This document shows, piece by piece, positions 6,270 through 22,964 of a stretch of 32,000 nt of DNA (position 1 is the stretch's first letter; each line of letters starts with the position of its first letter). Source of the stretch: Nonlabens ponticola (GTDB lineage: Bacteria; Bacteroidota; Bacteroidia; Flavobacteriales; Flavobacteriaceae). The notes under the pieces were generated by a model that was given only the letters and a program-made list of their open reading frames with translations, was not told where the DNA came from and made no database searches. The stretch is from positions 1,710,001-1,742,000 of the forward strand of contig NZ_CP034549.1 of assembly GCF_003966335.1 (NCBI RefSeq), given 5' to 3'. The position numbers and the translations under genes were made by a program.

Positions 6270-7238
6270 TTATAGTTGTTTAAAATTCTCAATGATTTGC
6301 ATGGCAACATCTAGTGCTCGTGTACCATCTTCCAGATTGACAATAGGCCTGGTATCATTTTCAATCGCATCTGCAAAGGTTTCCAATTCCATCAAAATGG
6401 CGTTGGTTGCGGCGATATCTGGATTGTCAAAATAGATTTGTTTTTTAATTCCTTCGGCATTTTGAAGGATCATGTCAAAGTCACCAGGCGTTTCTGGCGC
6501 GTCCTTCATGCGTACTACTTCAACAGCTTTGGTCAAGAAATCGACTGATATATAAGCATCACGCTGGAAGAATCGTGCTTTGCGCATTTTTTTGAGACTT
6601 ATGCGACTTGCTGTAAGATTTGCCACACAACCGTTCTCAAACTCGATGCGTGCGTTGGCAATATCAGGAGTTTCTGAAATCACACTTACGCCACTAGCAC
6701 TCACGCTTTTCACCTCGCTTTTCACGACGCTCAAGATGGCGTCTATATCATGTATCATTAGATCCAGCACCACGCTCACGTCAGTACCTCTTGGATTGAA
6801 TTCTGCCAATCTATGTGACTCGATGAACATAGGATTATCGATGCGGTCGTGTACAGATCTAAAGGCGTCGTTAAAGCGCTCGACGTGTCCTACCTGGCCT
6901 TTGACATTATGCTTTCGCGAAAGCGTAATCAATTCCTGCGCCTGTGCAACAGTAACGGTAATAGGTTTTTCAATAAATAAGTGTTTACCAGCTTCTAGGA
7001 CTTTCTTGCCGCTATCATGATGGTAGGTGGTAGGCGTCACGACGTCTATCATGTCACAAGCCTCAATGAGCTCGTCAAGATTATCATAGAATTTGTAACC
7101 TAATTCTTGCTCCAACTGCTTGCCGTGCACGGAATCGGTATCATAAAATCCAATTAGATCATATCGATCGCTTTGCTGTAAGAGTTTGAGGTGGATCTTG
7201 CCTAAATGGCCAGCTCCCATGACACCTGCTTTTAACAT
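6270..7238 (-). CDS. Gfo/Idh/MocA-family NAD(P)-dependent oxidoreductase
   Basis: N-terminal GVMGAGHLGKIH Rossmann segment and the family EKP motif (LFIEKPIT). Confidence 0.8.
   Translation of the reverse strand: MLKAGVMGAGHLGKIHLKLLQQSDRYDLIGFYDTDSVHGKQLEQELGYKFYDNLDELIEACDMIDVVTPTTYHHDSGKKVLEAGKHLFIEKPITVTVAQAQELITLSRKHNVKGQVGHVERFNDAFRSVHDRIDNPMFIESHRLAEFNPRGTDVSVVLDLMIHDIDAILSVVKSEVKSVSASGVSVISETPDIANARIEFENGCVANLTASRISLKKMRKARFFQRDAYISVDFLTKAVEVVRMKDAPETPGDFDMILQNAEGIKKQIYFDNPDIAATNAILMELETFADAIENDTRPIVNLEDGTRALDVAMQIIENFKQL
6911..6924. repeat. palindrome copy 3: GCTTTCGCGAAAGC (14 bp perfect)
   Basis: Inside the Gfo/Idh/MocA CDS (minus strand), read as L-S-R-K. Confidence 0.95.
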
Positions 7239-7363
7239 GTAGTTTGTGTTTCTGACAAAAATAGGGATTTTACAGGCTCTTTTAAGTGCCGTGGCTAGGT
7301 CATTTTATGAGTTGCGTGCTGTGAATAAATGGACCAGTAAATAGCCACTGCGCTATTTAATAT

Positions 7364-8032
7364 GTGGTTTTTGAAGTTATTTTTGCAATCATCGAGGACA
7401 ATTTTATACATAAAGGTAAACGTCGACAGTTGGTGCAATTAATGCGCGAGGAAGGCATACAAGATCAAGTGGTGCTGGATGCCATCAATCGGGTGCCTCG
7501 TCATTTGTTTCTGGACAGCTCTTTTCTAGAGCATGCTTACAAAAACAAGGCGTTCCCGATAGGTGCAGATCAAACGATTTCACATCCTTTTACCGTGGCT
7601 TTTCAAAGCGAATTATTACAAGCTTTGCCCGGCGATAAAGTGCTGGAAATAGGAACTGGTAGCGGTTATCAATGCGCTGTGCTGCTGGAAATGAAATTAC
7701 AGGTTTACACAATTGAACGTCAAAACCAATTATTTAAATCAACGGGAAAGCTGTTCAATAAGCTGAAGTACCGACCTAGGAAATTCGTTTTTGGCGATGG
7801 TTACCAGGGTTTACCTCAAGAAGCACCGTTTGATTCAATTATTGTCACTTGTGGCGCCGAGAGCATACCGCAGCAATTATTGTTACAGCTAAAAATTGGA
7901 GGTAGGCTGGTCATTCCAGTAGGACAAGATCCACAGATCATGACACTCATCGTACGCAAGTCAGAAACAGAGTTTACCAAAAAGACCTATGGCGAATTTA
8001 GGTTTGTGCCGTTCTTAGGTGGTAAGGAGTGA
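7364..8032 (+). CDS. pcm: protein-L-isoaspartate O-methyltransferase
   Basis: VLEIGTGSGYQ SAM-binding motif, PFDSIIVT and GGRLVIPVG. The start codon is uncertain (GTG at 7364). Confidence 0.85.
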   Translation: MVFEVIFAIIEDNFIHKGKRRQLVQLMREEGIQDQVVLDAINRVPRHLFLDSSFLEHAYKNKAFPIGADQTISHPFTVAFQSELLQALPGDKVLEIGTGSGYQCAVLLEMKLQVYTIERQNQLFKSTGKLFNKLKYRPRKFVFGDGYQGLPQEAPFDSIIVTCGAESIPQQLLLQLKIGGRLVIPVGQDPQIMTLIVRKSETEFTKKTYGEFRFVPFLGGKE

Positions 8033-9006: not shown

Positions 9007-9885
9007 TTATTTGTTATAGGCCATCGCAAAATCTTTGGCAAAATCTGCAAGGCCCACCTTTCCTAATTGCTTTGGTTTATGGTTATCATAATCTTGGTTA
9101 AGCCTGCCGTTTTCAAGACTTTGGTACATCTCAGTATAAAGTTGTGCGATGGACTCAGGTATCCCATTATCAATCATACCTTTTTTGACAGCTGCATCGT
9201 CAATAATTTCCCATTTTAAATCTGGTTTACCTATTGCCGCTCCTAGCGTTGCAGCAATCTCCTTACCTGTATGATGCGAGCTGGCGATGTACTTGAAAAT
9301 ACTGCTCTGTTCTTTTACAAGCTCTTGTGATGCTACGGTCGCGATGTCCCTAGGTGAGACTAATGGGAATGACTTACTTCCATAGTTTGCCATGATTTTA
9401 CCTGTGTACTTGATCATATCAATATTGTGCATCAAATTGTAGTAGAAGTAGGTAGGCCTCAATATGGTCAATTCGATATTGGGTATCGCGCTTATTATTT
9501 GCTCTGTAAAGTAGGACCCTAATATAGGTCCAGTGCCGTAGCTCAAGTGAGCCCCAAAACTACTTAATAATACCACTCTCTTTACCGCAGTTAGTTCAAT
9601 GGCTTTGGCATATACTGCCGCCGTCTTGCGATAATATTCTCGTATATCTGGCTGCTGGTAGTCTGGTGGACACATTAGGAATACTGATTCCGCTTTCGCG
9701 AAAGCGGAAACTAAAAAATCCACATCCTGCAATGATCCAATCATAGGCGTCGCGCCCAGATCCTCAATTTGTGAGGCTCTAGCTGGTGAATGGCTAATGA
9801 TAGTCAGGTCGTGACCTTGTTCCTGCAATTGTTGCGCAAGCGGTTGACCAATGTTTCCCAAAGAGCTTGCAAGTGTGATATTCAT
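9007..9885 (-). CDS. NmrA-like / atypical SDR NAD(P)-binding protein
   Basis: 292 aa with a degenerate N-terminal dinucleotide-binding segment (ASSLGNIGQPLAQQL). A 2-nt gap to the AraC gene suggests an operon. Confidence 0.65.
   Translation of the reverse strand: MNITLASSLGNIGQPLAQQLQEQGHDLTIISHSPARASQIEDLGATPMIGSLQDVDFLVSAFAKAESVFLMCPPDYQQPDIREYYRKTAAVYAKAIELTAVKRVVLLSSFGAHLSYGTGPILGSYFTEQIISAIPNIELTILRPTYFYYNLMHNIDMIKYTGKIMANYGSKSFPLVSPRDIATVASQELVKEQSSIFKYIASSHHTGKEIAATLGAAIGKPDLKWEIIDDAAVKKGMIDNGIPESIAQLYTEMYQSLENGRLNQDYDNHKPKQLGKVGLADFAKDFAMAYNK
9688..9709. repeat. palindrome copy 4: TTCCGCTTTCGCGAAAGCGGAA (22 bp perfect)
   Basis: Inside the NmrA-like CDS (minus strand), read as S-A-F-A-K-A-E. 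Confidence 0.95.
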
Positions 9886-10338
9886 AATATGATTTTAAGA
9901 TACAAATATCAATCGCACTGTTAGAAGGAATGTATCTAGATCTATCTAACTGTAAGCCAAATAGTGCTTTCCATCTATTCTATATGTAATGCTCCTTGCG
10001 ACCTATCCTTACTTTGGGCGCGGTCGAGATCCTTTGCTCTACAAATGCGAGTTCCTTTATATAAATGGTATTATGCGTGCCGTATTTCTCGACTCGCTGC
10101 CGCTTTCTGGTCTTTGGGTTGTAAGAGTAAGGAAGGAAATCATGATCCTATAGGCGTTGGAATATTTTATCTTTATCATATCCGTTTAGAAAGGATTATT
10201 TAAGCTACCGTACTTGGTATGAATCTAGAAAATTTAACCAGCGAGCGCAAAGATAATATGAGTAATTGCACCAACTTGTTTTTAAGTCGATCGGGAGCAA
10301 GTATGGGTGATGATTTAGATTAAATGTATAGGGATCAC

Positions 10339-10352
10339 GCTTCTGCGAAAGC
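10339..10352. repeat. palindrome copy 5, degenerate (GCTTCTGCGAAAGC, 12/14)
   Basis: Intergenic, 10 nt beyond the stop of the 827-aa gene. Confidence 0.6.
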
Positions 10353-10361
10353 AAAATCATC

Positions 10362-12845
10362 CTACAACCCAAAGTTTATTCCAACCACAAACGCACCATA
10401 ATTGCGATCGCTGGTGATACTGCGTATGTAGTCTACCCTAAATGGCCTGAAGCTACCAAAACCTATATTGTCAATACCTGCGCTTACTTCAAAGTACGGA
10501 TTACGGTCTGTGACAAGCGCCTTACCACTCAATATCAAGTCATAATTGAGCAAATTGAGACCTGGTATTTTACCCAGAATAAACCCTTTAAAATCGTGTT
10601 GCAGATGTAATTGAGCATAATCGCTATTGGTACTGTAATCATAGTAATCCAGTAAACCAAAACCGTAAGTGTTCAACGCCTGCAACTTATAGCGCAATTG
10701 GTTGCCATTAAAATGTTGATAATCCACAAATGAGATATCGTCACCAGTATCTAGGAAAGTACCGCCATTTATCCAATAACTAGATCGTCCCACATTACCC
10801 ATGTCAAACGTTTGAAAAATGCTTGCTTTCAATTGATGAAACTCGTTGCCATCATTACTAGCGGCAAAGCCACCTTCATAATTCACGGATACTACTGGGA
10901 ATTTCTCGTTGGGAATATTGATCTTTTGATCTGGATAGCTCTGATATTTTTGACCTGGACGCCAGGTCAAGGTAATACCTGTTTTTATGATCTCGTGATC
11001 TCGAATAAATGCAAGGCGACTGTTATCTAAAGTCAAAGGATTGTTTCTCGTATAACTAGTATCATCCCAATCAAACCAAGTTTGATCTGTAGTATTTTCA
11101 AGCGGTTGCCTGCGCTCGTAGGCAACACTCGCGTTTAATGACAATCCATTAACTATTTCTTCATAATAATTTATACGTCCAAAATCAACCTCATAGAACT
11201 TGGCAAAATTCCTCTCAAATGCCAGTGTCGATAGGGTGTTTTCCAGCGTGGAAATAGGATTGCCATTATTTATTTGTCGAGCCTCGGTACCACCTGTGAT
11301 TCCTATGTATCTGCGATTAATACGATTAAATCTATAGCCGGCTCTTGCTGTGTATCTCAAGCGATCGTCAGACACACCATACTCTGCATCGACACCAACA
11401 TTAAATACTTGATTGTAATCATCATCAAATCCTTTTACAAATCGCAATCCTGTTCCTATTACAAATCCTTGAACGGTATTGAATCCTCTAAAGTTATCTA
11501 GACCTATCAATCCATCATAAGTAATGCTATAGTTCTCGTTACTGTCGCGATAGCTGTAACCAGTAATAGGATCTAACAGATTGAATTTATTATTTACCTG
11601 ATCCACACTGTCCTTGTAAGCAGGGTCATTGCGCACGGCAGCAATACTGTCTTTTTTTACATATTCGTTAGATTCTTCTAGAGTCAACGGCACTGGACGT
11701 ATGGTTCTCCAATACAAGCTATCCTTTTCATTTGCTTTGCTTTCAAAGGCTAGCGTTTCTCTACCAAAGGTTTTCTTATCAAACTGTGGTTCAAAGTCAT
11801 AATCGGTATAGTTAGCAATAAATCGACCTGTCCCTTTAAATCCAAAGAGCCCGAAAGCAAATACAATATTTTGACCACGTTTTACCCATTGCTCACTGCT
11901 GGAATCATAGGTAAACTCTTGATTAAAGGTGAGCTCCTTAATGGCAGGTACATTTATATTTTGACCAGTCGTAGTGAGCTCAAGACCGTAAATGGTCCAT
12001 TGATCCTCGACGATGTAGATGGTACCATTGAATGTATTGTCCTTAGGACGACGCGATATAACTTCTATCTTGTTGATTAAGAAATTATTGCTGTCATAAA
12101 AAGTTCCTAGCAGCTTGTATTTATAGTAAGAGAAAGCATAGTCTGCAATGGGTGAGACGATGCGGTTGTTTAGGTCAATATTATTCTCGTAAAAGTCAAA
12201 GTTTGCAGCCTCGGCACTATTGACGCTAAAGCCGTTATCATCACCACTCACCTTGCTCGCAGTTATATATTCTTTAAAGTTGTCAGGAGCCTTAAATGCA
12301 ATATTGCTCACAGTTTCAGATAAATAGATGACGCCACTGCGTGTGATGCTATCTAGCGAGCCGCCTAGATCGCCCACTTCTTGTCCTAGAAATTTTTCTG
12401 GTACATCTTCCATACGCCACAGTCCACGAGAGTAGAAGTTAGCCGTATAGCTTTGTGTTTTTTGACCGTTCTTTTCTCGATTTTCAATTGCTGCGCGTAT
12501 GACTCGGTTTGCTGGGTTTTCATCACTGCGCACCACGATTTCATCCAGCGACATGGTTTCTTCAATTAGAACAACATTTTCGGTATATGGAAAAGATTTG
12601 ATCTCGATTGTCTTCTCGATAGTCTTGTATCCTAAACTTTGATAAACGATACGATAGGTGCCAGTTTGAGCAAGTTCCAGTGCATAAGATCCATTACTAT
12701 TGGTAGTTGTGCCAGAGTAAGTGTCTTTTACATATATAGAGGCAAAAGCTATGGGCTCGTTTTTCTCATCAGTGATAACCCCAGTAAGTTGGGCTTGAGA
12801 AAATAATGATAAAAGAAAAAGCAGTGATAAGTAAACGTTTTTCAT
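10362..12845 (-). CDS. large secreted protein with N-terminal carboxypeptidase-regulatory-like domain (DUF5686-like)
   Basis: Signal peptide, then a CarboxypepD_reg-type segment GVITDEKNEPIAFASIYVKDTYSGTTTNSNGSYAL, then a long beta-rich remainder. Confidence 0.65.
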   Translation of the reverse strand: MKNVYLSLLFLLSLFSQAQLTGVITDEKNEPIAFASIYVKDTYSGTTTNSNGSYALELAQTGTYRIVYQSLGYKTIEKTIEIKSFPYTENVVLIEETMSLDEIVVRSDENPANRVIRAAIENREKNGQKTQSYTANFYSRGLWRMEDVPEKFLGQEVGDLGGSLDSITRSGVIYLSETVSNIAFKAPDNFKEYITASKVSGDDNGFSVNSAEAANFDFYENNIDLNNRIVSPIADYAFSYYKYKLLGTFYDSNNFLINKIEVISRRPKDNTFNGTIYIVEDQWTIYGLELTTTGQNINVPAIKELTFNQEFTYDSSSEQWVKRGQNIVFAFGLFGFKGTGRFIANYTDYDFEPQFDKKTFGRETLAFESKANEKDSLYWRTIRPVPLTLEESNEYVKKDSIAAVRNDPAYKDSVDQVNNKFNLLDPITGYSYRDSNENYSITYDGLIGLDNFRGFNTVQGFVIGTGLRFVKGFDDDYNQVFNVGVDAEYGVSDDRLRYTARAGYRFNRINRRYIGITGGTEARQINNGNPISTLENTLSTLAFERNFAKFYEVDFGRINYYEEIVNGLSLNASVAYERRQPLENTTDQTWFDWDDTSYTRNNPLTLDNSRLAFIRDHEIIKTGITLTWRPGQKYQSYPDQKINIPNEKFPVVSVNYEGGFAASNDGNEFHQLKASIFQTFDMGNVGRSSYWINGGTFLDTGDDISFVDYQHFNGNQLRYKLQALNTYGFGLLDYYDYSTNSDYAQLHLQHDFKGFILGKIPGLNLLNYDLILSGKALVTDRNPYFEVSAGIDNIGFGSFRPFRVDYIRSITSDRNYGAFVVGINFGL

Positions 12846-12909
12846 ACTTCAGTGGTTGGTTAGTGATATAGCACTATCCTTATAGACACGATGAAGTTAC
12901 AATAGTTTA

Positions 12910-14190: not shown

Positions 14191-14221
14191 ACAGTTGGGT
14201 AGCCCTTTTTGACAGTTGGGT
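14191..14221 (+). promoter_or_regulatory. candidate LytTR-regulator operator: direct repeat ACAGTTGGGT x2, 21-bp phase
   Basis: Exact 10-mers at 14191-14200 and 14212-14221. The 9-mer ACAGTTGGG fits the LytTR consensus [TA][AC][CA]GTTN[AG][TG] with a 12-nt spacer. It sits 11 nt upstream of a candidate -33 TTG. Confidence 0.55.
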
Positions 14222-14232
14222 CACTCGCATTC

Positions 14233-14262
14233 TTGATCAAGTGATGTGGTAGTTCATATTTG
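14233..14262 (+). promoter_or_regulatory. candidate promoter of kinase operon (TTG-N19-CATATTTG)
   Basis: TTG at 14233-14235 with a 19-nt spacer. The -7-like box CATATTTG at 14255-14262 has one mismatch to TAnnTTTG. It lies 43 nt upstream of the ATG at 14305. Confidence 0.35.
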
Positions 14263-14304
14263 TCGTGTTGATATTCTTTACATTTAAGAATTCATTACAC
14301 GATT

Positions 14305-15636
14305 ATGAATACAAAAAGCTTTTATCGGTTATTACTCATCGGCGCCATTATTGCCCTTGTTATTACGGCTAGTACGTTGCTTTTAAATAAGGCGAGTGTA
14401 AGCATCCCGATGCTTGCAGAATCTTTTGCGATAAACTTCTTGTTTGCCTTTACGCTCACGCTGGTCAATGAGACCTATTTTTCTTATCTCACGACCATAT
14501 TTCCGTGGACAACCGCAGCGGTAAAAAGATTGCTGGTCGGGATTTTGGGATCTTGTGTCTTGACTATGATCGCGCTTTTTTTGGTTCGTGTATTTGTAGC
14601 CATCGTTATCTATGGTAGAACACTAGATAATTTCATCGAGAGTGAGCGCATGCAGTTCTACATTATTGGTGTCATTTTCACGTTGGTCATTTCTGTAATC
14701 TTCCATGCAATTTACTTTTATAAGGAGTTGCAGCAGGCTAAAATACAGGAGCAAAAAGTCATCGCAGGATCTGCCACCGCACAGTTTGATGCTCTTAAAA
14801 ATCAGCTGGATCCGCATTTTTTGTTTAATAGCTTGAATGTACTTGTTTCTTTAATTGAAGAAAATCAGGACGCTGCTGTCAAATTCACAACCTCACTATC
14901 CAAGGTTTACCGTTATGTACTAGAACAACGTGGAAAGCAGCTGGTATCAGTACAAGAAGAGCTTGAGTTTGCTAGACTCTATGTGCAATTGCTCAAGATG
15001 CGATTTGAGGATAGTCTTATCGTTGATATTGCGGATTCATCTGTCTTACCAGATCAATATATCGTGCCGTTGTCTTTACAACTACTCATTGAGAATGCCG
15101 TAAAGCACAATGTTGTAAGCAGCTCACAGCCACTGCACCTGTCAATCCATCCAGCTGGTGATAAGCTAGTCGTATCAAATACCTTATCGCCTAAAAAGGT
15201 TTTATCTACTACCACAGGTGTTGGTTTACAAAACATTGCCAGTAGGTATGGTTTGATTTCTACCCAACAGATGAGCGTCTTGAAAAGTGAAACACATTTT
15301 AACGTGCAGCTACCCATGTTGCCTCTTAATCCTGAACTACCTAAAACTAAAGCTATGGAAATTCAATTAGAAGATCAAAAACTAGTCAATGCTCGCGAGA
15401 AAGTCAAGAACATGAAAGAATTTTATGATGAGCTCGTGCGATTCATATTCATTATTGCCTTCTTAGGATTACTTAACTATTTCACGAGTGATTTTCCTTG
15501 GGTGATTTTCCCTGCGATAGGGATGAGTATAGGATTATTTTTCAAATACATGAAAAACTTTGACCGTCACATCTTGCTGGGCAAAAACTGGGAAGAGCAA
15601 AAAATAAATAAATACATGAACGACTCAAATTTTTAA
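14305..15636 (+). CDS. LytS/YehU-type sensor histidine kinase with C-terminal 2TM domain
   Basis: About 4 N-terminal TM helices, the His_kinase motif LKNQLDPHFLFNSLNVL and the N-box LLIENAVKHN. The C-terminal TM pair resembles the next gene. Confidence 0.8.
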   Translation: MNTKSFYRLLLIGAIIALVITASTLLLNKASVSIPMLAESFAINFLFAFTLTLVNETYFSYLTTIFPWTTAAVKRLLVGILGSCVLTMIALFLVRVFVAIVIYGRTLDNFIESERMQFYIIGVIFTLVISVIFHAIYFYKELQQAKIQEQKVIAGSATAQFDALKNQLDPHFLFNSLNVLVSLIEENQDAAVKFTTSLSKVYRYVLEQRGKQLVSVQEELEFARLYVQLLKMRFEDSLIVDIADSSVLPDQYIVPLSLQLLIENAVKHNVVSSSQPLHLSIHPAGDKLVVSNTLSPKKVLSTTTGVGLQNIASRYGLISTQQMSVLKSETHFNVQLPMLPLNPELPKTKAMEIQLEDQKLVNAREKVKNMKEFYDELVRFIFIIAFLGLLNYFTSDFPWVIFPAIGMSIGLFFKYMKNFDRHILLGKNWEEQKINKYMNDSNF

Positions 15637-15638
15637 TT

Positions 15639-15935
15639 ATGACAACTACTACAGAGACTTATCAAGAAAAATATGCTAGGGCCAAAGCTCGCGTGAACGA
15701 GATCAGGTATTTTTATAACCATGTAGCCGTCTATTTACTTATCAATGCTGCACTTGCAGGGCTTAATTATTGGGAGAATCAATTTGCATTTCCATGGTTC
15801 CTATTCCCTTTATTAGGTTGGGGTATAGGTTTATTGAGCCATGCGGTAGGAACCTTTAGGCTCAATCCTTTTGTAAGTAAAGAATGGGAAGAGCGCAAAC
15901 TGCGTGAGATCATGGAACAACAAGATAAATCCTAA
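15639..15935 (+). CDS. 2TM domain-containing small membrane protein
   Basis: 98 aa with a two-helix hairpin (VAVYLLINAALAGLNYW / WFLFPLLGWGIGLLSHAV) paralogous to the kinase C-terminus. A 2-nt gap separates it from the kinase stop. Confidence 0.7.
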   Translation: MTTTTETYQEKYARAKARVNEIRYFYNHVAVYLLINAALAGLNYWENQFAFPWFLFPLLGWGIGLLSHAVGTFRLNPFVSKEWEERKLREIMEQQDKS

Positions 15936-15936
15936 G

Positions 15937-16716
15937 ATGTCAATCAATGTCCTTATTATAGAAGATGAAAAGCCAGCGGCAAGACGATTGCAGCGCATGG
16001 CAGAAAAGCTAGATCTTACCGTCGCTGCGGTATTACACAGCGTGGCAGAATCTATTGCCCATCTATCATCACAGCCGCATCCAGATCTCATATTTCTGGA
16101 TATACAATTAAGTGATGGGCTGTCCTTTGAAATTTTTGAACAGGTAAGCGTCAAGAGTTCTATAATCTTTACCACAGCCTATGATGAATATGCCTTACAA
16201 GCCTTCAAACTCAACAGCATTGATTATTTACTCAAACCTATAGATCAAGATGAGCTCGTGACAGCGGTAGATAAATTTAAGTCACGCTTTCGCGAAAGCG
16301 GAACAAACCCAAACACCTTACCTGCATCCATCATGCAGCAGATGGCACAAATGCTTTCTAACCCTGCAGGACAACAGTATCGTGATAGATTTACAGCTAG
16401 AGTAGGTGAGCATATCAAGATCTTTGCGGTCGATGAAGTGCAATTATTCTTCTCAGAGAATAAAGGCACCTATCTTAATGTTGCAAATGGTCGCAATTAC
16501 CTGTTGGACTATAAAATGGAAGAAATGGAACAATTGCTGGATCCCAATAAATTCCACCGTATTTCTAGGCAGGCAATAGTTCATGTCAACGCTATCAATG
16601 ACATCATAGCTTATACCAACTCACGTTTAAAAGTCAAAATAGACTCATTTAAGACTTATGATTTGATTGTAAGTAGAGAGCGTGTAAAGGACTTTAAGAA
16701 ATGGCTCGAGCGATAA
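15937..16716 (+). CDS. LytTR-family DNA-binding response regulator
   Basis: ATG at 15937 is 1 nt after the upstream stop. Receiver domain (VLIIEDE, DLIFLDIQLSD) and C-terminal LytTR domain (FHRISRQAIVHVNAI). Confidence 0.85.
   Translation: MSINVLIIEDEKPAARRLQRMAEKLDLTVAAVLHSVAESIAHLSSQPHPDLIFLDIQLSDGLSFEIFEQVSVKSSIIFTTAYDEYALQAFKLNSIDYLLKPIDQDELVTAVDKFKSRFRESGTNPNTLPASIMQQMAQMLSNPAGQQYRDRFTARVGEHIKIFAVDEVQLFFSENKGTYLNVANGRNYLLDYKMEEMEQLLDPNKFHRISRQAIVHVNAINDIIAYTNSRLKVKIDSFKTYDLIVSRERVKDFKKWLER
16285..16300. repeat. palindrome copy 7: CGCTTTCGCGAAAGCG (16 bp perfect)
   Basis: Inside the LytTR regulator CDS, in the receiver/LytTR linker, read as R-F-R-E-S. Confidence 0.95.
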
Positions 16717-16825
16717 TTGCCTAATTATTTGATTATCAATATGAAGAATTAATTGGGCTTTAACGTTTCCTTGTAAACCACAACATGTTTGCTCGCGTAT
16801 GTTTACTGTAAACAAAAACATACAC

Positions 16826-17518
16826 ATGAAAAAAATTGCCCTATGGTCAAGCATTGCAATCTGCGCTATCGCAGGTCTGTTCATTGCCGCTGATCACCTT
16901 GATGCACCAGATGTTGCAGGAACAACATCAGACATCGCAGACTTTTATGCCTTTGAAGGACAAAACTCTGATGCTACAACATTTGTAGTAACTATTCCGG
17001 CCTCAGACGAGAATTCTCAATTTGATGAGAACGTTCTTATCGAGATCAACATTGATAATACCGGTCTAGATTCTGGTACTACTGGTGTCACTGAAGATTT
17101 AGTAATCCAGGCATTGCGCCAGGGCGACCAGATGTATTTCTTTGGACCATATGCTCCAGGATCAACAGGACTTAACAGTACTATTGATACTGATGAATTT
17201 TCTGCTTCTGTAGAAATAGGAAGTACTGAAACTACTGGTGGTGTTAGCTATTTTGCAGGACAACGTCAAGACGCGTTCTTCTTTGATTTTGAAGAGTTTA
17301 ATAATGTAATTGGTAATGCACCAGCTGAAGGTTTTGGCGATGATGGTGATAACCTTTTTGAAGACTTCAATGTCAATGCAATTGTTATCGAGATTCCTAA
17401 CTCCATGTTAGGTACTGCACCAACACACCTTGCTGATCAACTTGCTGCTGCAGTAGGTTTACCAGCATTCAATTTACCTAATGCATACAATGTATGGGTA
17501 GAAACTAAGCGTCGATAA
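16826..17518 (+). CDS. DUF4331 family protein, N-terminal-half type, secreted
   Basis: ATG at 16826 gives the signal peptide MKKIALWSSIAICAIAG. Motifs ADHLDAPDVAG..SDIADFYAF, LIEINIDNTG and NVNAIVIEIP match the front half of DUF4331 proteins as I recall them. Confidence 0.65.
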   Translation: MKKIALWSSIAICAIAGLFIAADHLDAPDVAGTTSDIADFYAFEGQNSDATTFVVTIPASDENSQFDENVLIEINIDNTGLDSGTTGVTEDLVIQALRQGDQMYFFGPYAPGSTGLNSTIDTDEFSASVEIGSTETTGGVSYFAGQRQDAFFFDFEEFNNVIGNAPAEGFGDDGDNLFEDFNVNAIVIEIPNSMLGTAPTHLADQLAAAVGLPAFNLPNAYNVWVETKRR

Positions 17519-17542
17519 TCACAACCCTTTAAAAGAAAAGAA

Positions 17543-18169
17543 ATGAAATTATTTAATATTAAATATGCTGTTGCTGCATTAGCACTAGCAACTATCACAA
17601 TAAGTTGTGATGATGACGATGATGTAACAGGCTTTCCAGCTACAACTGATTTCTCCGGTACTTTTGTACAAGAAGATCAAATGGGTCGTCCTGGTATCAA
17701 CACCGTTTTCACTCCAACTGAGGATGATGAGAATGAATTTAATGTAACCTTGCCAGCAAATGGTATCGCTAACTTTCAAGCTATCTTTCAAGATAGACTA
17801 GAAGCATACTACGACGCTTATGGTGCGGAATATGAAAACAACATTCTAGGTCTTGACATTGCAACATTGACGACTGTACTTGCACTTGATGTGTTACAAG
17901 TTGCTCCTAATGCAGATACTAGTTATTTTAATCCTAACACGGGCGTACCACTTACTGGTAGAAGGCTAACTGACGACGTTATTGACGTTTCTTTGATCCT
18001 CCTTTTTGGTGGTGAGAGCGGTGCACGTTTTGACGGTGGTGAAGGTAATGGTGATGACGACGATGATGATGATTCTAACAACGTACCTAACCTTGTTTCA
18101 GACAATGTAGGTGTTGAAGATGATGCTGTTCAAAACACATTCCCATACTTGACGCCAGCTGACTTCTAG
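17543..18169 (+). CDS. DUF4331 family lipoprotein, C-terminal-half type, with poly-Asp tracts
   Basis: Lipoprotein signal ...ATITISC. Motifs QMGRPGINTVF, TGRRLTDDVIDVSL and FPYLTP match the back half of DUF4331. D5 follows the lipobox Cys and D7 lies near the C-terminus. Confidence 0.65.
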   Translation: MKLFNIKYAVAALALATITISCDDDDDVTGFPATTDFSGTFVQEDQMGRPGINTVFTPTEDDENEFNVTLPANGIANFQAIFQDRLEAYYDAYGAEYENNILGLDIATLTTVLALDVLQVAPNADTSYFNPNTGVPLTGRRLTDDVIDVSLILLFGGESGARFDGGEGNGDDDDDDDSNNVPNLVSDNVGVEDDAVQNTFPYLTPADF

Positions 18170-18193
18170 AAGTTAGTTTGTGACATTATTTAT

Positions 18194-18228
18194 AAGCCGA
18201 TTTCTTTGTAAATCGGCTTTATTATTTA
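18194..18228 (+). terminator. rho-independent terminator/attenuator between DUF4331 pair and TPR gene
   Basis: 10-bp perfect stem AAGCCGATTT/AAATCGGCTT with a 6-nt loop, followed by TATTATTT. Confidence 0.6.
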
Positions 18229-18242
18229 CCCTATTTTGATTT

Positions 18243-19538
18243 ATGAAAAACCTAATTATCATTTTGATTTTAATGTTGTTCATCACTAGCTGTGGTGACC
18301 GCAATGTTGATGTAGCATCCAGTACCATTACAGCTGCCGAGGATTATCAAGAATACCTGGAGAATGACAATACTAGTGAGATAGAAGCATTTAAGCAAGA
18401 GGTTGATTTTCTACGTGAAGTAGTTACAGAGGATAGTACCAGAATTGTAGTAATGAGCCAACTTGCAGGCAAACTAGATCGATTATTTGATCTTACTGGT
18501 GAAGTTGATTATTTGAATGAGTCAGTTAGCTTTCGCGAAAACGTAACCCAGAAAACATACATCAAACCAGAGAATGCAAAGCGTAATCTGGCACAAGCAT
18601 ACATAAAGCAACATCGCTTCAAAAAAGCCGATAGCCTGATGAAATCATTTACGGCAAATTATGCCAGTAAGGAAAGTCAGTTTGTCCAATTTGACATCGC
18701 CATGGAGTTGGGAGAATATCAAACGGCGCAGTTGCTGCTGGATTCCCTGCGCAATACAGGTGATTATAATTATTTAATTCGTGCTGCCAAATGGAATGAT
18801 CACGACGGTAATCTGGAAAATACGATTAACCTCATGGAGCAGGCAAAGCAACTAGCTGATGAGAGTGGTAGTCAATCACGACAGTTGTGGAGTTATTCAA
18901 ACATAGCAGATTATTATGGTCACAATGGCCAGTTAGAGGACTCTTATGAGCATTATTTAAAAACGCTAGAATTAGATCCAGGTAACACCTATGCCTTGAA
19001 AGGTATATCGTGGCTGGTTTATTCAAATGATCGCGATCCAGATCAAGCATTAGAAATATTGACAACGCTTAAAGAAAGGCATCCATTACCCGATTACAAC
19101 CTAGAAATGGCTGAGGTTTATGAATACAAAGATGCCTCGCAAACTGCTGATTCTTTACGCGCTGTATTTCTTTCTCAAGTGAGTGATCCGGGTTATGGAG
19201 ACATGTATAATGCCTATAAAATTGAGGAATTAATTGCAGCTGGTGAATCACAGCAAGCCGTTGATCTAGCACGTCTTGAAATTACCAATCGCGCTACTCC
19301 TGAGACTTATGATTTGTTGGGCTATGCTTTATTATCTAATGATGAGGCTGCTGCAGCTCTTGAAAATCATAAGAAATATGTCATCGGTAAAACATATGAA
19401 CCGGTAGCGCAATTGCACACGGCTCAGATTTTGAAAGCAAATAACATGAACGAGATGGTAGAGAAACTCAAAAAGGAGCTTCTAGAGACTGAATATGAAT
19501 TAGGGCCAGTAACCTATAAACAAATACAGGCATTGTAA
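18243..19538 (+). CDS. TPR-repeat lipoprotein
   Basis: Lipoprotein signal MKNLIIILILMLFITSC. All-helical sequence with TPR-like repeats (e.g. YYGHNGQLEDSYEHYLKTLELDPGN). Confidence 0.7.
   Translation: MKNLIIILILMLFITSCGDRNVDVASSTITAAEDYQEYLENDNTSEIEAFKQEVDFLREVVTEDSTRIVVMSQLAGKLDRLFDLTGEVDYLNESVSFRENVTQKTYIKPENAKRNLAQAYIKQHRFKKADSLMKSFTANYASKESQFVQFDIAMELGEYQTAQLLLDSLRNTGDYNYLIRAAKWNDHDGNLENTINLMEQAKQLADESGSQSRQLWSYSNIADYYGHNGQLEDSYEHYLKTLELDPGNTYALKGISWLVYSNDRDPDQALEILTTLKERHPLPDYNLEMAEVYEYKDASQTADSLRAVFLSQVSDPGYGDMYNAYKIEELIAAGESQQAVDLARLEITNRATPETYDLLGYALLSNDEAAAALENHKKYVIGKTYEPVAQLHTAQILKANNMNEMVEKLKKELLETEYELGPVTYKQIQAL
18529..18542. repeat. palindrome copy 8 (GCTTTCGCGAAAAC, 13/14)
   Basis: Inside the TPR CDS, read as S-F-R-E-N. 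Confidence 0.8.
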
Positions 19539-19577
19539 AACCACAATTACCGTACACACGTATATAGTGTATAGTTG

Positions 19578-19607
19578 TTGCTCTAGAAGTTGAGAGAGCT
19601 AGAGCAA
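19578..19607 (+). other. hairpin (9-bp stem, 12-nt loop) downstream of TPR gene
   Basis: TTGCTCTAG ... CTAGAGCAA, followed by T/G-rich sequence. Confidence 0.3.
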
Positions 19608-19631
19608 TTGATTGGTTGGTTAGTTTAGATG

Positions 19632-19665
19632 TGCTCGGGTTTAGGGATCCGAGCATTTCTGTGTT
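19632..19665 (+). terminator. rho-independent terminator of the TPR gene
   Basis: Stem TGCTCGG/CCGAGCA followed by TTTCTGTGTTT, in a convergent intergenic region. Confidence 0.55.
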
Positions 19666-19688
19666 TATATCTCACTTAAACGACCGTC

Positions 19689-19904
19689 TTATTGCCTGTA
19701 CTCTTCAATGACTTTTTGAGCTTGCGGTAAATCTTTTTGAGCTACAAATAACTCAATGTCGTTAGGTGGCGCTCCAAATCCGGCAAGACGAGCAGATTCA
19801 GTATGATCTTTAATTAATGTAGCGATATTCTTCTCGTTGAGAAGCTGGGCTATTCTATTAATAGTTGTTGAGCTACCAGAAATGAGTTTGACTTCTTGTT
19901 GCAT
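19689..19904 (-). CDS. DUF2007-like small protein (putative signal-transducing fold)
   Basis: 71 aa. The pattern NRIAQLLNEKNIATLIKD...GFGAPPNDIELFVAQKDLPQAQKVI resembles DUF2007 proteins. Confidence 0.55.
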   Translation of the reverse strand: MQQEVKLISGSSTTINRIAQLLNEKNIATLIKDHTESARLAGFGAPPNDIELFVAQKDLPQAQKVIEEYRQ

Positions 19905-19920
19905 GATTAAAAATCAGGTT

Positions 19921-20622
19921 TTACTTCATTTGTGTATAGTCACAAATGGATTGTATAATTATTTTCTTGTCAATCTTCTTAGCCTCAATAAACCGTTCTA
20001 TTTTTGAGACTCTTTTATCATAATTGATTGTTTTCCTTTCTAAATGTAATGATTTAGGAGCTTTGAAACCAGCTTTGAGCATTTCGTATTCGGTTGCAAA
20101 AGGTAAAAGCGGTGCATGGTATTTCATCTTGGGGTTTAATATATATGCTATGGATGCGAGCTTTTCACTGTCAACTTTTGTCTGGTCGGTATGTTTTAGA
20201 ATCCATCTTTCATGGACGACATTATTAATAGTTGTATCATTTATTTGATTATAGGCAGTATATTCAATAACATCCTTAAACGGATTACTAAGTGGGTCAA
20301 CATCACGGCAAGGAATACTAATAAACTCAGCTTTTATAAAGTCAGCCTTTTTCATTTTAGATTCAGATTTCAAGCCATTACGATCAAACATATATATCAT
20401 GTAATTTTCATTGTCGTGAGGCATTAAAAGAGCATAGTAATCGCTAGTAGCCGAATTGGTCAAGTATAATTTTGTAACAGGATATTCTGTATCGTTTCCT
20501 GGCTTTACAAAATCTTCCACTAGTGTATATTGGTATTCTAAGACATGATCGAACTCATAGACCTTTTGCGCGCTGGCTTGTTGAATAAAGAAGATAAATA
20601 CTAGTAAAGAAGAATATTTCAT
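19921..20622 (-). CDS. hypothetical secreted protein (orphan, AT-rich gene)
   Basis: ATG at 20622 gives the signal peptide MKYSSLLVFIFFIQQASA. No recognisable domain. Local GC is clearly below that of the neighbours. Confidence 0.5.
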   Translation of the reverse strand: MKYSSLLVFIFFIQQASAQKVYEFDHVLEYQYTLVEDFVKPGNDTEYPVTKLYLTNSATSDYYALLMPHDNENYMIYMFDRNGLKSESKMKKADFIKAEFISIPCRDVDPLSNPFKDVIEYTAYNQINDTTINNVVHERWILKHTDQTKVDSEKLASIAYILNPKMKYHAPLLPFATEYEMLKAGFKAPKSLHLERKTINYDKRVSKIERFIEAKKIDKKIIIQSICDYTQMK

Positions 20623-20970
20623 TAACTGTTTTTTGTTCAATTAAATTGATTTTATCTAAGTATAACGTAAAACATTTACCTGCCCAAATCATTCCTATTA
20701 AGATTCATTATCAGTCTTGAACTAAGAATTGTGATTAGAGCACTGGCCGATTTTTTTTTACAAAAAAAAGTATGCTTTTCTGATGCATCAAGCACAAACA
20801 CCTGCGAATCAAAATTTAGTTGAGAATTGACTTAAGCTACTTTAAATTAATCACTGCTAATGTGGATTGCTCGTAGAAGAGCCGCGAGGTCAAAGCAATG
20901 TTAGCACTACTAAATTGCGTTGCATAACTCCAATTAAAAACGATTGTTTATTCAAATGCCAATCAACTGA

Positions 20971-21753
20971 TCAATCAGTTGGCAAAGCGCCTAGTACATA
21001 CAACCTTTCCAAAGTTGGCCCTTGACTACCGCCAGCAGGTTCTAGAGTAATCCCAAAGGCTTGAGTATCAAACTTGTTTTCTACCGCAAAGGCATCTTCT
21101 TGATAAGCCAGCACACCTAGGTCAGTTGGTGTTAATGGATTCAGCGTTAATGACCATAATTGATAAGTCATATTTTCTGGTGGTGCAGGAAGGTTTGCGA
21201 TATCAATATAGGTGATGTTCAAGTCAGGATTATGGAAGGCGACGGCGCTGCTGCTCTCAAATCCAGCCTGACCAGCCAGCGGTACTTTCACTGTTTCTGG
21301 TGCTTTTATGAAATCCAGAGCTTCTTGATAATCAAGAGCAAGCTGCTCAGTTTGCTGTAATTCTTGATCTAGGAACTCATTGCGCTCCACGTTACCTCGT
21401 ATTTCCTCTTTGAGATTTGTGTTGGATCTGTATAAAAATCCTGCGCTTATAAACAATAGTATCGCAGCTGCCCATCCTAGATATTGTCTCCATAGCGCGA
21501 CACGATGTTCTTGTGAATGTTCTTTTATGTACGCGCGAATATTTTCTAGCATGGTGATGCCATCCAATTGTGGTGCTACACCTCTGGCGATAGTTTGGTA
21601 TGCGTTTTCAATGCGTATTACTTCTTCCTCAACCTCAATGTGTTGATCAACCATTTGGGTGATTTCCACGCATCTTTTTGTGGGTAGAACACCACAAACA
21701 TAGGCTTCTAATTCGCCACTCTCGATTAATTCATTTACTGTCAATTCCATCAT
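20971..21753 (-). CDS. anti-sigma factor, RskA-like
   Basis: ATG at 21753 overlaps the sigma stop (ATGA). N-terminal anti-sigma helix region, one TM helix (WAAAILLFISAGFLY) and a C-terminal RskA-type segment (MTYQLWSL...P..LGVL). Confidence 0.7.
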   Translation of the reverse strand: MMELTVNELIESGELEAYVCGVLPTKRCVEITQMVDQHIEVEEEVIRIENAYQTIARGVAPQLDGITMLENIRAYIKEHSQEHRVALWRQYLGWAAAILLFISAGFLYRSNTNLKEEIRGNVERNEFLDQELQQTEQLALDYQEALDFIKAPETVKVPLAGQAGFESSSAVAFHNPDLNITYIDIANLPAPPENMTYQLWSLTLNPLTPTDLGVLAYQEDAFAVENKFDTQAFGITLEPAGGSQGPTLERLYVLGALPTD

Positions 21754-22286
21754 CCTACCATCATTTTGCGTAGAGAATTTAGGCATTTACGGTGACGTGT
21801 TTTAAGCGTTCCCGACGGCATTCCTAATTCCTCAGCGCCGTCTTTAAAAGTGAAACCTTTAAAGAAAATAATATCAATAATTCTTACACACATTGGTTCT
21901 AATTTCTGCACCCATTCCTTTAAGAATAGGGTGTCTGTCTGTTCATCCAGATTATCTTTACTTACAATAATATCTACGAAATTATCTGTGCTTAAGTTCT
22001 TTAATTTGTTTTTATGACGTTTACTGCGCAGATAATCGATTGATGCATTGCGAGATATGTTGAGTGCCCAGGTGAAAAATCTACCAGCATCGGCATCGTA
22101 GGATGTTCTATTGCGCCATATTTTGACAAAAACATCTTGAAGTATTTCTTGAGCGACTTCTTCTTCCTTTACAATACCGTAAATAATGCCATAAAGCGCA
22201 TCCTTGTAACGGTCATAAATTCTATTGAAAGCTACCTCGCTACCTTCTTGTAGCCTATTGATGAGCAGATCTGGTTGGGATTTCAT
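21750..22286 (-). CDS. ECF-type RNA polymerase sigma-70 factor
   Basis: Region 2 (YKDALYGIIYGIV, QDVFVKIWRN) and region 4 (GFTFKDGAEELGMPSGTLKTRHRKCL). Confidence 0.85.
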   Translation of the reverse strand: MKSQPDLLINRLQEGSEVAFNRIYDRYKDALYGIIYGIVKEEEVAQEILQDVFVKIWRNRTSYDADAGRFFTWALNISRNASIDYLRSKRHKNKLKNLSTDNFVDIIVSKDNLDEQTDTLFLKEWVQKLEPMCVRIIDIIFFKGFTFKDGAEELGMPSGTLKTRHRKCLNSLRKMMVG

Positions 22287-22311
22287 GTGTAATCTTGAAT
22301 TTTAAAGATGC

Positions 22312-22347
22312 AAAAAAAAATCTACAACCAGGTGGTTGTAGATTTTT
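22312..22347 (-). terminator. strong rho-independent terminator of sodC (A9/T5-flanked, potentially bidirectional)
   Basis: The minus-strand RNA forms the stem AUCUACAACC-ACCU-GGUUGUAGAU followed by U9. Confidence 0.8.
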
Positions 22348-22367
22348 AAATCGATTGGGATGTTCAT

Positions 22368-22964
22368 TTACTCGACAACGCCACAAGCAACACGAGCACC
22401 AGCGGCGCCACTAGGCTGTGATGTAAAGTCATCGGCTTTTGCATGAACGATAACTCCTTTGCCAACAATGTTTTTATTTTCATCATCACATCCTATACAC
22501 CACTTGTCAGTAGAGAAGACGAGCGATGCATTACCTTCAGCATCTGCTTGTAGATTTCCTATGTCCCCTTTATGGTGCTGATTATCGCCCCATGATCCAT
22601 GATCTTCAGACGTTGGATTCCAGTGTCCACCAGCGCTTGAAGCATCATCGGCACTACAATCACCATTCTGGTGTAAATGGATGGCGTGCGATCCTTCTTC
22701 AAGACCTACTAGTTCAACTACCATTTCTACTTCATCACCTTTTTCGGTAAAAATGATAGAGCCAGTCACGTCACTACCGCTTTTTGATCCCATTGGGACG
22801 TTTACTGTTTTAGGTTCATCCATATTTTCATCTTCATTACTACTGTCCTCCATTTCCATGTCAGTATTGTTGCTGTCCATGTTTTCTTCTTCCTTGTTTT
22901 CTTTACAAGAAGCTATGCTTAATGTTAGTGCTAGTGCCAATAAGGCGATGTTTAATTTTTTCAT
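22368..22964 (-). CDS. sodC: Cu,Zn superoxide dismutase lipoprotein
   Basis: Lipobox LSIASC. Motifs HAIHLHQNGDC, GGHWNP, HHKGDIGNL, VIVHAKADD and GARVACGVV. All Cu/Zn ligand positions appear present. Confidence 0.9.
   Translation of the reverse strand: MKKLNIALLALALTLSIASCKENKEEENMDSNNTDMEMEDSSNEDENMDEPKTVNVPMGSKSGSDVTGSIIFTEKGDEVEMVVELVGLEEGSHAIHLHQNGDCSADDASSAGGHWNPTSEDHGSWGDNQHHKGDIGNLQADAEGNASLVFSTDKWCIGCDDENKNIVGKGVIVHAKADDFTSQPSGAAGARVACGVVE

Follow-up and report, generated by a model that had tools for sequence, protein, structure and literature searches.

Two-component systems of the LytS/LytTR type, among them LytSR, BtsSR and YpdAB, join a multi-transmembrane sensor with a His_kinase domain (PF06580) to a response regulator made of a receiver and a LytTR domain; LytSR controls lrgAB. 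Extracytoplasmic function (ECF) sigma factors paired with membrane anti-sigma factors follow another plan. In SigK/RskA of Mycobacterium tuberculosis, the gene for an RskA_C-type anti-sigma factor overlaps the sigma gene, and the regulon is mpt70/mpt83; in RpoE/RseA, an envelope-protein regulon is combined with the terminator-ended small RNAs MicA, RybB and MicL and with feedback through the anti-sigma gene. A sigma-E-dependent small RNA, FoxJ, has also been described in Fusobacterium (PMC11005410). Here we analyze a 32,000-nucleotide stretch of Nonlabens ponticola DNA (contig NZ_CP034549.1, positions 1,710,001 to 1,742,000; hereafter the window, whose own numbering is used throughout), in which a LytS/LytTR-type system is followed on the same strand by two genes that divide one DUF4331 domain between them and by a gene for a TPR lipoprotein. 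A first-pass annotation had proposed these six genes as a candidate envelope module. Our comparisons lead us to think that the block probably consists of two juxtaposed units: a LytTR system, and an ECF sigma regulon that includes the DUF4331/TPR genes and a small RNA.

The anatomy of the block agreed with that annotation. Both the listing of open reading frames (ORFs) and Pfam support six same-strand genes with the proposed domains and with gaps of 2, 1 and 24 nt. The first three encode a LytS-type histidine kinase (14305-15636 +), a free-standing 2TM protein that starts 2 nt further on (15639-15935 +; Pfam 2TM, E 5.9e-27) and, after a 1-nt gap, a response regulator with receiver and LytTR domains (from the ATG at 15937 to 16716, +). 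They are followed by DUF4331-N (16826-17518 +), by DUF4331-C (17543-18169 +) after a 24-nt gap, and by the TPR lipoprotein gene (18243-19538 +), whose product has weak TPR matches in Pfam. At 100% identity, DUF4331-N of the window matches a protein of Nonlabens ponticola, a marine member of the Flavobacteriaceae. To place the locus among its relatives, we scanned one genome per GTDB species for DUF4331-N, which returned 481 loci; the best 80 of the 481 were analyzed with 10-kb flanks, their six-frame ORFs being searched with the window's proteins and the results tabulated, and provide the Flavobacteriaceae counts given below, presence or absence being scored within 10 kb. In all, 90 related loci were compared, eight distant ones included. 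All locus counts are taken from related genomes, which are phylogenetically non-independent.

The LytTR operator lies upstream of the kinase gene (14191-14220 +). It consists of two 9-bp direct repeats, ACAGTTGGG (14191 and 14212), separated by a spacer of 12 nt, and a TAnnTTTG-like -7 box (14255-14262) follows about 35 nt downstream. The architecture is that of the AgrA operator, and the repeats are close to the AgrA consensus, ACAGTTAAG. An AgrA dimer is known to bind direct repeats (PMC4227749). In 14 Nonlabens loci the form ACARYTSRG-N12-ACARYTSRG is conserved 5' of the kinase gene, in species whose flanking sequence has diverged. A pattern scan of the loci found 34 such pairs, all on the two-component strand. 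Each of them either precedes the kinase operon or a TonB-receptor-like gene upstream of it, or lies between the kinase gene and the 2TM genes; not one of the 34 precedes DUF4331-N. Within the window, ACAGTTGGG occurs exactly twice and no further pair exists, which extends to the whole window the earlier observation that the 16717-16825 gap before DUF4331-N holds no second pair. Because no operator precedes DUF4331-N, the visible output of the LytTR system is its own operon and small 2TM membrane proteins, local targets that recall the control of lrgAB by LytSR.

Two further points concern LytTR sites. One half-site candidate in the 16717-16825 gap matches at only 6 of 9 positions (TTAATTGGG) and has no partner 21 nt away, and it was rejected. 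Outside Nonlabens, operators before a TonB-dependent-receptor-like gene and between the kinase and 2TM genes are exemplified by L052 (at 2131 and 4435) and L002 (at 1854 and 4498).

DUF4331-N has an upstream element of its own. When the 130 nt upstream of this gene were aligned across genera, a promoter-like motif could be seen by eye, which in the window reads GTAAACC (16773-16779)-N16-CGTA (16796-16799); we call it P1 (16773-16799 +). Its consensus in the family is AAAACC-N16-CGTAaaTA, usually preceded by TTAAC elements; in the window, a conserved TTTAAC element (16759-16764 +) lies 9 nt upstream of the P1 -35 box at 16773. A CGT -10 box is the ECF signature reported from the transcription-start mapping of Flavobacterium psychrophilum (PMC9723704). 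The motif provides a candidate ECF promoter consensus for marine Flavobacteriaceae. The position of P1 predicts a transcription start near 16805 and supports the DUF4331-N ATG at 16826. Strict matches to the motif number 170 in 1.4 Mb of related loci, and 130 of these fall at three fixed positions, P1 (54), P2 (35) and P3 (41), the latter two being described below; the spacer is 16 nt in 126 of the 130. When these loci were shuffled once by mononucleotide, 22 matches appeared in total, compared with 40 real matches outside P1, P2 and P3. Of 35 loci in which an ECF sigma gene is adjacent, 31 have P1, versus 5 of 16 without such a neighbor (Fisher p 7.6e-5), and the presence of P1 shows no association with the LytTR regulator (p 0.47), both values being optimistic because the related genomes are not phylogenetically independent.

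The P1 region has additional features. In other genera (L001, L050, L061 and L093) TTAAC forms the direct repeat ATTAAC-N5-ATTAAC, with an 11-bp periodicity, and the TTAAC elements lie within the region shared with a divergent LETM1-related gene. A palindrome in the window, TGTTTAC-T-GTAAACA (16799-16813 +), overlaps the last -10 base (16799) and ends about 12 nt before the DUF4331-N start codon; we considered it as an operator and rejected it, since it is not conserved in relatives.

We then asked how the two groups of genes behave as neighbors. DUF4331-N, DUF4331-C and the TPR gene are almost always found together, with TPR present in 67 of 71 loci that offer enough sequence. In 47 of the 62 loci with enough flank, drawn from about 10 genera, a LytTR regulator is encoded no more than 10 kb upstream, and the kinase likewise in 44. 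The locus components diverge in parallel between genera, implying that the whole arrangement is vertically inherited. The link that had been drawn from adjacency between the two-component genes and the DUF4331/TPR genes therefore holds in many genomes as far as neighborhood is concerned, whereas the annotation had named their never being neighbors elsewhere as an outcome that would refute it. Shared regulation is not supported: the adjacency is best read, from the comparison of loci, as shared synteny of two separable units. The distance from the regulator gene to DUF4331-N ranges from 81 nt to 3.8 kb, and in genera other than Nonlabens one to three opposite-strand genes stand between the two. 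The interposed divergent gene encodes what NCBIfam names a 'LETM1-related biofilm-associated protein' (E 1e-133), sometimes joined by a gene for an EptA/CptA-like phosphoethanolamine transferase.

The closest relatives of the kinase outside Nonlabens (48-51% identity) come from Maribacter, Aquimarina and Muriicola. Maribacter sp. HTCC2170 has, in this order, the kinase gene, three 2TM genes, the regulator gene, the LETM1-related gene, a gene for 211 aa, hydrolase-OsmC, DUF2490 and Sortilin/BNR; this backbone is partly that of the window's right flank, and the 19 kb contain no DUF4331, TPR, sigma or anti-sigma gene. One Aquimarina contig carries the DUF4331 pair in inverted orientation, 7.8 kb upstream of the kinase gene; the pair is still divergent from the LETM1-related gene, P1 is retained, and an ECF sigma gene is nearby. 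Conversely, this two-component system is missing from at least 13 Flavobacteriaceae loci that have DUF4331/TPR genes, and from all 8 of the distant loci. Conserved adjacency inside one bacterial family can thus mean backbone synteny and not common regulation. The LETM1-related gene itself (6643-7860 - in L001, with equivalents elsewhere) is absent from the window; it is divergent from DUF4331-N in most non-Nonlabens genera, and the pairing holds even where the two-component system is missing or the cassette is inverted.

The proposed cognate of the promoters is an ECF sigma factor encoded at 21750-22286 (-). Its gene overlaps by 37 nt a co-oriented gene (20971-21786 -) for an anti-sigma factor with an extracytoplasmic RskA_C domain (Pfam E 4.7e-16, 59.7 bits). 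The sigma factor scores 54.7 bits for Sigma70_r2, 31 bits for Sigma70_ECF and 23.7 for Sigma70_r4, the last just under the cut-off of 24.1. Among the related loci, the convergent genes downstream encode an RskA_C anti-sigma factor in 45 of 63 cases and an ECF sigma factor in 44 of 63. From the co-occurrence of the promoters with this gene pair, we infer that the neighboring sigma factor reads P1 and P2. The pair shares with SigK/RskA both the RskA_C anti-sigma factor and the overlap of its gene with the sigma gene. It differs in phylum, in promoter motif and in its candidate regulon of DUF4331/TPR genes, and also in that Pfam detects no N-terminal zinc-finger domain in the anti-sigma factor.

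P2 (19537-19562 +) reads AAAACC-N16-CGTA and overlaps the TPR stop codon. Just downstream, sequence conservation outlines a candidate ECF-dependent small RNA of about 100 nt (19568-19666 +, the 5' end being predicted). In the window it comprises a 5' hairpin (19580-19605), the unpaired conserved TTGGTTGGTTAGTTT (19612-19626) and a terminator (19631-19656) followed by a T-run. The same plan holds across Nonlabens, with a variable 5' hairpin, unpaired TTGGTTGGTTAGTTT and terminator, whereas other genera have GGTTGGTTATC, two hairpins, CAGAGTTTTTTTGTTAGTT and a terminator. Single-sequence fold z-scores range from -3.7 to -5.5, and compensatory changes occur in all 7 consensus terminator pairs (RNAalifold on a MAFFT alignment). 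RNAalifold recovered the terminator only, and a second alignment gave an artefactual long-range helix; the 5' hairpins are single-sequence folds. Because an nhmmer model of the small RNA was too insensitive, missing even the window copy, it was replaced by a test of seed plus position. By this test, seed and terminator are present in 31 of 44 loci with the sigma gene versus 3 of 19 without, and they coincide with P2 in 30 of 34. Sigma-bearing loci without the small RNA belong mostly to a clade in which the TPR and anti-sigma genes converge within 100 nt.

The first-pass annotation had placed the right boundary of its module at a terminator at 19632. That terminator is indeed present, at 19631-19656, but it belongs to the small-RNA unit, because the conserved unit of about 100 nt, with its own promoter P2, ends there. 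As with RpoE/RseA, then, a sigma factor with a membrane anti-sigma partner would be associated both with envelope proteins and with a short, terminator-ended RNA that has an ECF-type promoter. Unlike the RpoE small RNAs, the one described here has no Rfam family, either at the gathering score or at E <= 10, and we regard it as a new candidate, previously undescribed, in a phylum in which very few regulatory RNAs are understood. To our knowledge, Bacteroidota lack Hfq. A possible target was also considered. The conserved stretch of the small RNA has 12 nt of perfect complementarity, ACTAACCAACCA, to window 12852-12866 (-), at -8 to -19 of the start of a gene for an 827-aa DUF5686/CarbopepD_reg outer-membrane-like protein. 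Three other Nonlabens loci do not conserve this complementarity, and neither pairing with the DUF5686 mRNA nor pairing with the start region of the sigma mRNA could be substantiated.

The third copy of the motif, P3, lies inside the sigma gene (21975-22001 -), across the codons K-N-L...F-V, and in the window takes the weakened form AAGAACTT-N15-TTCGTA. Codon choice in this region is strikingly narrow in 49 aligned sigma genes: Asn is AAC in 45 of 45 (background 41%), Phe is TTC in 45 of 47 (28%) and Val is GTA in 45 of 45 (44%), while Leu is CTN in 40 of 44 and a nearby Asn is AAT in 36 of 41. This constraint on synonymous sites argues that P3 has a function at the DNA level. Judging from its position, P3 most likely drives the 3' part of the sigma gene together with the anti-sigma gene, and so provides negative feedback. 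Feedback through the anti-sigma gene would be a further likeness to RpoE/RseA; the differences are that the anti-sigma factor is here of the RskA_C type and that the presumed feedback promoter is inside the sigma coding sequence, an example of an intragenic promoter maintained through synonymous-site selection. A copy in a relative can be seen in L009, at about 14261 (-).

A conserved terminator-like hairpin with a T-run (18194-18219 +) separates DUF4331-C from the TPR gene. It recurs in nearly all related loci with differing stem sequences, and it probably either keeps TPR expression below that of the DUF4331 pair or stabilizes the upstream message. Neither this hairpin, nor P1, nor the small unit that begins at P2 had figured in the earlier description of the block.

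Neither DUF4331 gene encodes the whole domain; the two products match complementary parts of PF14224. DUF4331-N covers profile positions of about 131-221 (71 bits, cut-off 27) and DUF4331-C positions 246-419 of 421 (44.2 bits, cut-off 27). The N-half has a Sec signal peptide, an invariant DH-x-D-x-P at the mature N-terminus and a beta-sandwich, and the C-half has a lipoprotein signal, a Cys followed by DDDDD, one beta-strand and a helical domain. The split is kept in all 80 closest loci. We rejected a recent pseudogene split because the split itself, the gap (23-24 nt in the loci checked) and the lipoprotein signal of the C-half are conserved across genera. A search of 1.84 billion representative proteins placed the homologues of DUF4331-N in 428 clusters at 50% identity, which include both split forms (about 210-260 aa, common) and full-length forms (350-770 aa). 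The window proteins and the full-length forms have in common the signal peptide followed by (A/S)-DH-x-D-x-P, and the motifs DIADxYAF, IDNTGD..EDLVIQ, FAGxRDDPFFFD, QxDRxGxPxINT, NGRxxxDDVID and FPYL.

A model of a full-length homologue (predicted local distance difference test, pLDDT, 85.9; predicted template-modeling score, pTM, 0.84) shows a beta-sandwich and then a helical domain, and DUF4331-N of the window modeled alone with AlphaFold2 reaches a pLDDT of 85.2. The split point coincides with the turn between strands 212-222 and 228-235 of the full-length model, so that the sandwich of the N-half would receive a strand from the C-half. On these models, the halves probably re-form one beta-sandwich and helical domain by strand complementation. 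Neither half, nor a 50-sequence profile, retrieved any solved relative in sequence searches. In the window, the two halves lie in one reading frame, with TAA and 24 nt between them (16826-18169 +); they are also in frame in L001 and L002, and out of frame in L003. Translational read-through between them is unlikely to matter, because the C-half has its own lipoprotein signal.

The lipobox Cys of DUF4331-C begins CDDDDD in the window and is followed by x-DDD(D/E) in essentially all orthologues. An acidic run after this Cys (SDDDD/SDDFE) is the surface-export signal of Bacteroidota lipoproteins (PMC5080379), so that the CxDDDD of DUF4331-C predicts surface exposure. In this it resembles surface lipoproteins such as SusD and BtuG, whose published signals it matches; unlike them, it has no adjoining gene for a SusC-like or TonB-dependent partner in the window, and half of its domain is a separate, non-lipidated polypeptide. 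The family to which the TPR lipoprotein belongs is found with DUF4331 across phyla. All 8 distant loci have a TPR-type partner, and all of the 7 distant partners that were compared chain pairwise with the window protein (for L088, 34% identity over 380 aa). We conclude that DUF4331 and its dedicated TPR partner are an ancient pair, split in many lineages. The earlier description of the output-side neighbors as exported proteins of unknown function is supported, in that the genes encode exported or membrane proteins of unknown function. Neither DUF4331 nor PF14224 is mentioned in the literature that we searched.

Gene context in distant lineages offers a lead on what DUF4331/TPR might do. Transition-metal transport genes lie beside DUF4331/TPR in 5 of the 8 distant loci. 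In L086, ZnuA/ABC/ABC-3 and two NicO genes form one string with DUF4331-N/C and TPR. L091 has two NicO genes, one of which encodes a 693-aa NicO-DUF4331 fusion (9090-11171 +; NicO E 1e-21, DUF4331 E 1e-56). In the other three, the neighbors are HupE_UreJ_2 (L090), DUF4198 (L087) and ABC-3 (L085). Because distant loci link or fuse DUF4331/TPR with metal-transport genes, we propose extracytoplasmic metal handling as their likeliest role: capture, buffering or hand-over of a divalent transition metal (nickel, cobalt or zinc) outside the cytoplasm. We offer this tentatively, as a possibility somewhat short of an even chance. It would give a widespread family a concrete functional lead, and it brings DUF4331/TPR close to the accessory proteins of the NicO, HupE/UreJ and DUF4198 systems, with which they are co-operonic in distant lineages and, once, fused. 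The fusion in L091 carries a complete DUF4331 and stands in an operon with the other NicO gene, split and unsplit DUF4331 and the TPR partner.

Taken together, these data replace a vague envelope module of unknown function with specific and testable units, juxtaposed within a larger locus that Flavobacteriaceae conserve. Computation shows the anatomy, the conservation of the motifs, the co-occurrences and the separability of the units; the identity of the sigma factor that reads the promoters, transcription of the small RNA, assembly of the DUF4331 halves and the metal role are inferences. In the first (unit A, 14191-16716), the kinase would sense within the membrane by means of its four transmembrane segments, its 2TM tail and the free 2TM paralogue. 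The regulator would bind the AgrA-like direct repeats before its own operon and so regulate itself; its local output would be this operon, to which other genera may add extra 2TM genes and the upstream TonB-receptor-like gene. In the second (unit B, 16759-22286), the RskA_C-type membrane anti-sigma factor would hold the sigma factor until an envelope signal frees it. The freed sigma factor would then fire the AAAACC-N16-CGTA promoters before DUF4331-N/C and before the small RNA of about 100 nt, the TPR gene being reached by read-through of the conserved, leaky terminator. In most relatives it may also fire the intragenic P3, yielding more anti-sigma factor and hence negative feedback. The DUF4331 halves would be exported separately, and the re-formed complex, tethered by the lipid anchor of the C-half, would work with the TPR lipoprotein.

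Could the six genes nevertheless be a single module, with DUF4331/TPR as the output, through read-through or an unrecognized LytTR site, of a LytTR system that responds to a membrane signal? They share a strand, only 109 nt and no predicted terminator separate the regulator gene from DUF4331-N, the neighborhood is retained in 47 of 62 loci across genera, and the components diverge in parallel. Yet no locus has an operator before DUF4331-N, whose own ECF-type promoter tracks the sigma gene; in most other genera, opposite-strand genes (LETM1-related, EptA/CptA-like) come between the units; Maribacter lacks DUF4331/TPR although its two-component system and flanking synteny are kept, Aquimarina has its DUF4331 unit inverted and 7.8 kb off, and the distant DUF4331/TPR loci are never accompanied by this two-component system. 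We therefore judge a single module improbable. The same low likelihood attaches, in our view, to the idea that another sigma factor, or some other protein, recognizes the motif, that the ECF/RskA pair is unrelated to DUF4331/TPR, and that the 'small RNA' is the 3' untranslated region of TPR with its terminator. This idea would account for the absence of a motif upstream of the sigma gene, for the 13 of 44 sigma-bearing loci without the small RNA and for the 5 loci that have P1 among the 16 with no sigma gene next to them, and flavobacteria have several ECF sigma factors of possibly overlapping specificity (PMC9723704). It fits poorly with the strong co-occurrence of P1, P2 and the small RNA with the adjacent sigma gene, with a third copy held inside that gene by synonymous-site constraint, with the classic ECF geometry of AAC-N16-CGT, and with Aquimarina, which retains P1 and a nearby ECF sigma gene after rearrangement. 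Some observations do count against the two-unit reading that we prefer. The 22287-22367 interval upstream of the sigma gene contains no motif, that is, no autoregulatory copy; in the window, P1 reads GTAAACC instead of AAAACC and P3 is degraded; transcription of unit A may to some extent run on into DUF4331-N, because no terminator lies between the regulator gene and DUF4331-N; the association between P1 and the sigma gene is overstated by its p value; and the promoters, the small RNA and the terminator read-through are read from sequence conservation only.

The function of DUF4331/TPR can be argued in a similar way. With the same regulatory split, these proteins might, instead of a metal system, be a factor for structure, adhesion or biofilm at the cell surface or outer membrane, induced when the envelope is stressed. 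DUF4331-N is divergent from the LETM1-related biofilm-associated gene in most non-Nonlabens genera, a gene resembling lipid A/core phosphoethanolamine transferases sometimes adjoins, DUF4331-C carries a surface-export signal, no Flavobacteriaceae locus examined contains a metal transporter, and many invariant Asp/Asn residues fit the structural Ca2+ sites of surface proteins. Such a role makes it hard to explain the NicO-DUF4331 fusion and the repeated operon linkage to four families of metal transporters in unrelated lineages; the near-invariant His at the predicted mature N-terminus also speaks against it, and we find it rather unlikely. For metal handling, the difficulties are of another kind. 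Neither the window genes nor the Flavobacteriaceae loci that were examined include a metal transporter gene, a difference from NicO/HupE-type accessory systems with their permease; the only metal-related neighbor in the window is a Cu/Zn superoxide dismutase gene, which is why we put the role forward with reserve. The conserved Asp-rich positions of DUF4331 could be structural Ca2+ sites. Foldseek searches of the PDB with the full-length model and with the window's N-half model gave nothing better than E 0.009 and a TM-score of 0.29, with no informative relative, and so no function can be derived from the fold, which, unlike that of the accessory proteins, has no solved relative. Finally, it is hard to picture how a surface-displayed C-half and a soluble N-half are joined.

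A broader form of the metal proposal can be stated, although we consider it doubtful. DUF4331 and TPR might be an unrecognized, widespread extracytoplasmic device for metal capture or hand-over that serves NicO-, HupE- or Znu-type permeases, with a fold unlike any solved. In Flavobacteriaceae this device would be displayed at the surface and induced by an ECF sigma factor that also makes a new Hfq-independent class of Bacteroidota small RNA and restrains itself through an intragenic promoter.

The Cu/Zn superoxide dismutase gene of the window (22368-22964 -), which encodes an exported protein, lies directly upstream of the sigma gene, with a terminator between the two. A Sod_Cu gene is likewise found near the sigma gene in Ulvibacter (L001).

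The two-component proteins themselves depart from the described LytS-type systems. The kinase matches His_kinase PF06580 well (E 7.5e-25, 87.4 bits, cut-off 25.2) and carries a 2TM domain (PF13239, E 9.4e-20) at its C-terminus; HATPase_c has no Pfam match at E <= 0.1, and an N-box-like ENAVKHN and a G-box-like GVGLQN are visible in the putative ATPase region. Its N-terminus has four transmembrane segments joined by loops of only 8-29 residues, which leave no room for a sizeable periplasmic domain, and this bears out the earlier description of a membrane-embedded sensor. Likewise, the kinase tail and the free 2TM protein proved to be paralogous, as had been suggested (31% identity, E 1e-16). 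The sensor thus differs from LytS-type kinases in having four transmembrane segments and not a 5TM-Lyt domain, in its C-terminal 2TM domain, and in the company of free 2TM paralogues, of which relatives have 1-5 per locus; a literature search for PF13239 or '2TM domain' gave nothing relevant. The regulator has Response_reg (56.7 bits) and LytTR (63 bits) domains. Its best NCBIfam matches, LytR (95.8, cut-off 375) and BtsR (95.2, cut-off 246), are so far under the equivalog cut-offs that it is not an orthologue of either. The NCBI-derived kinase protein has 408 aa, 92% of the ORF; the stretch in question is window 14305-14409 (+). Kinase homologues of 440-446 aa match the query along 99-100% of its length; this supports a start at 14305 and suggests that this ATG is the true one.

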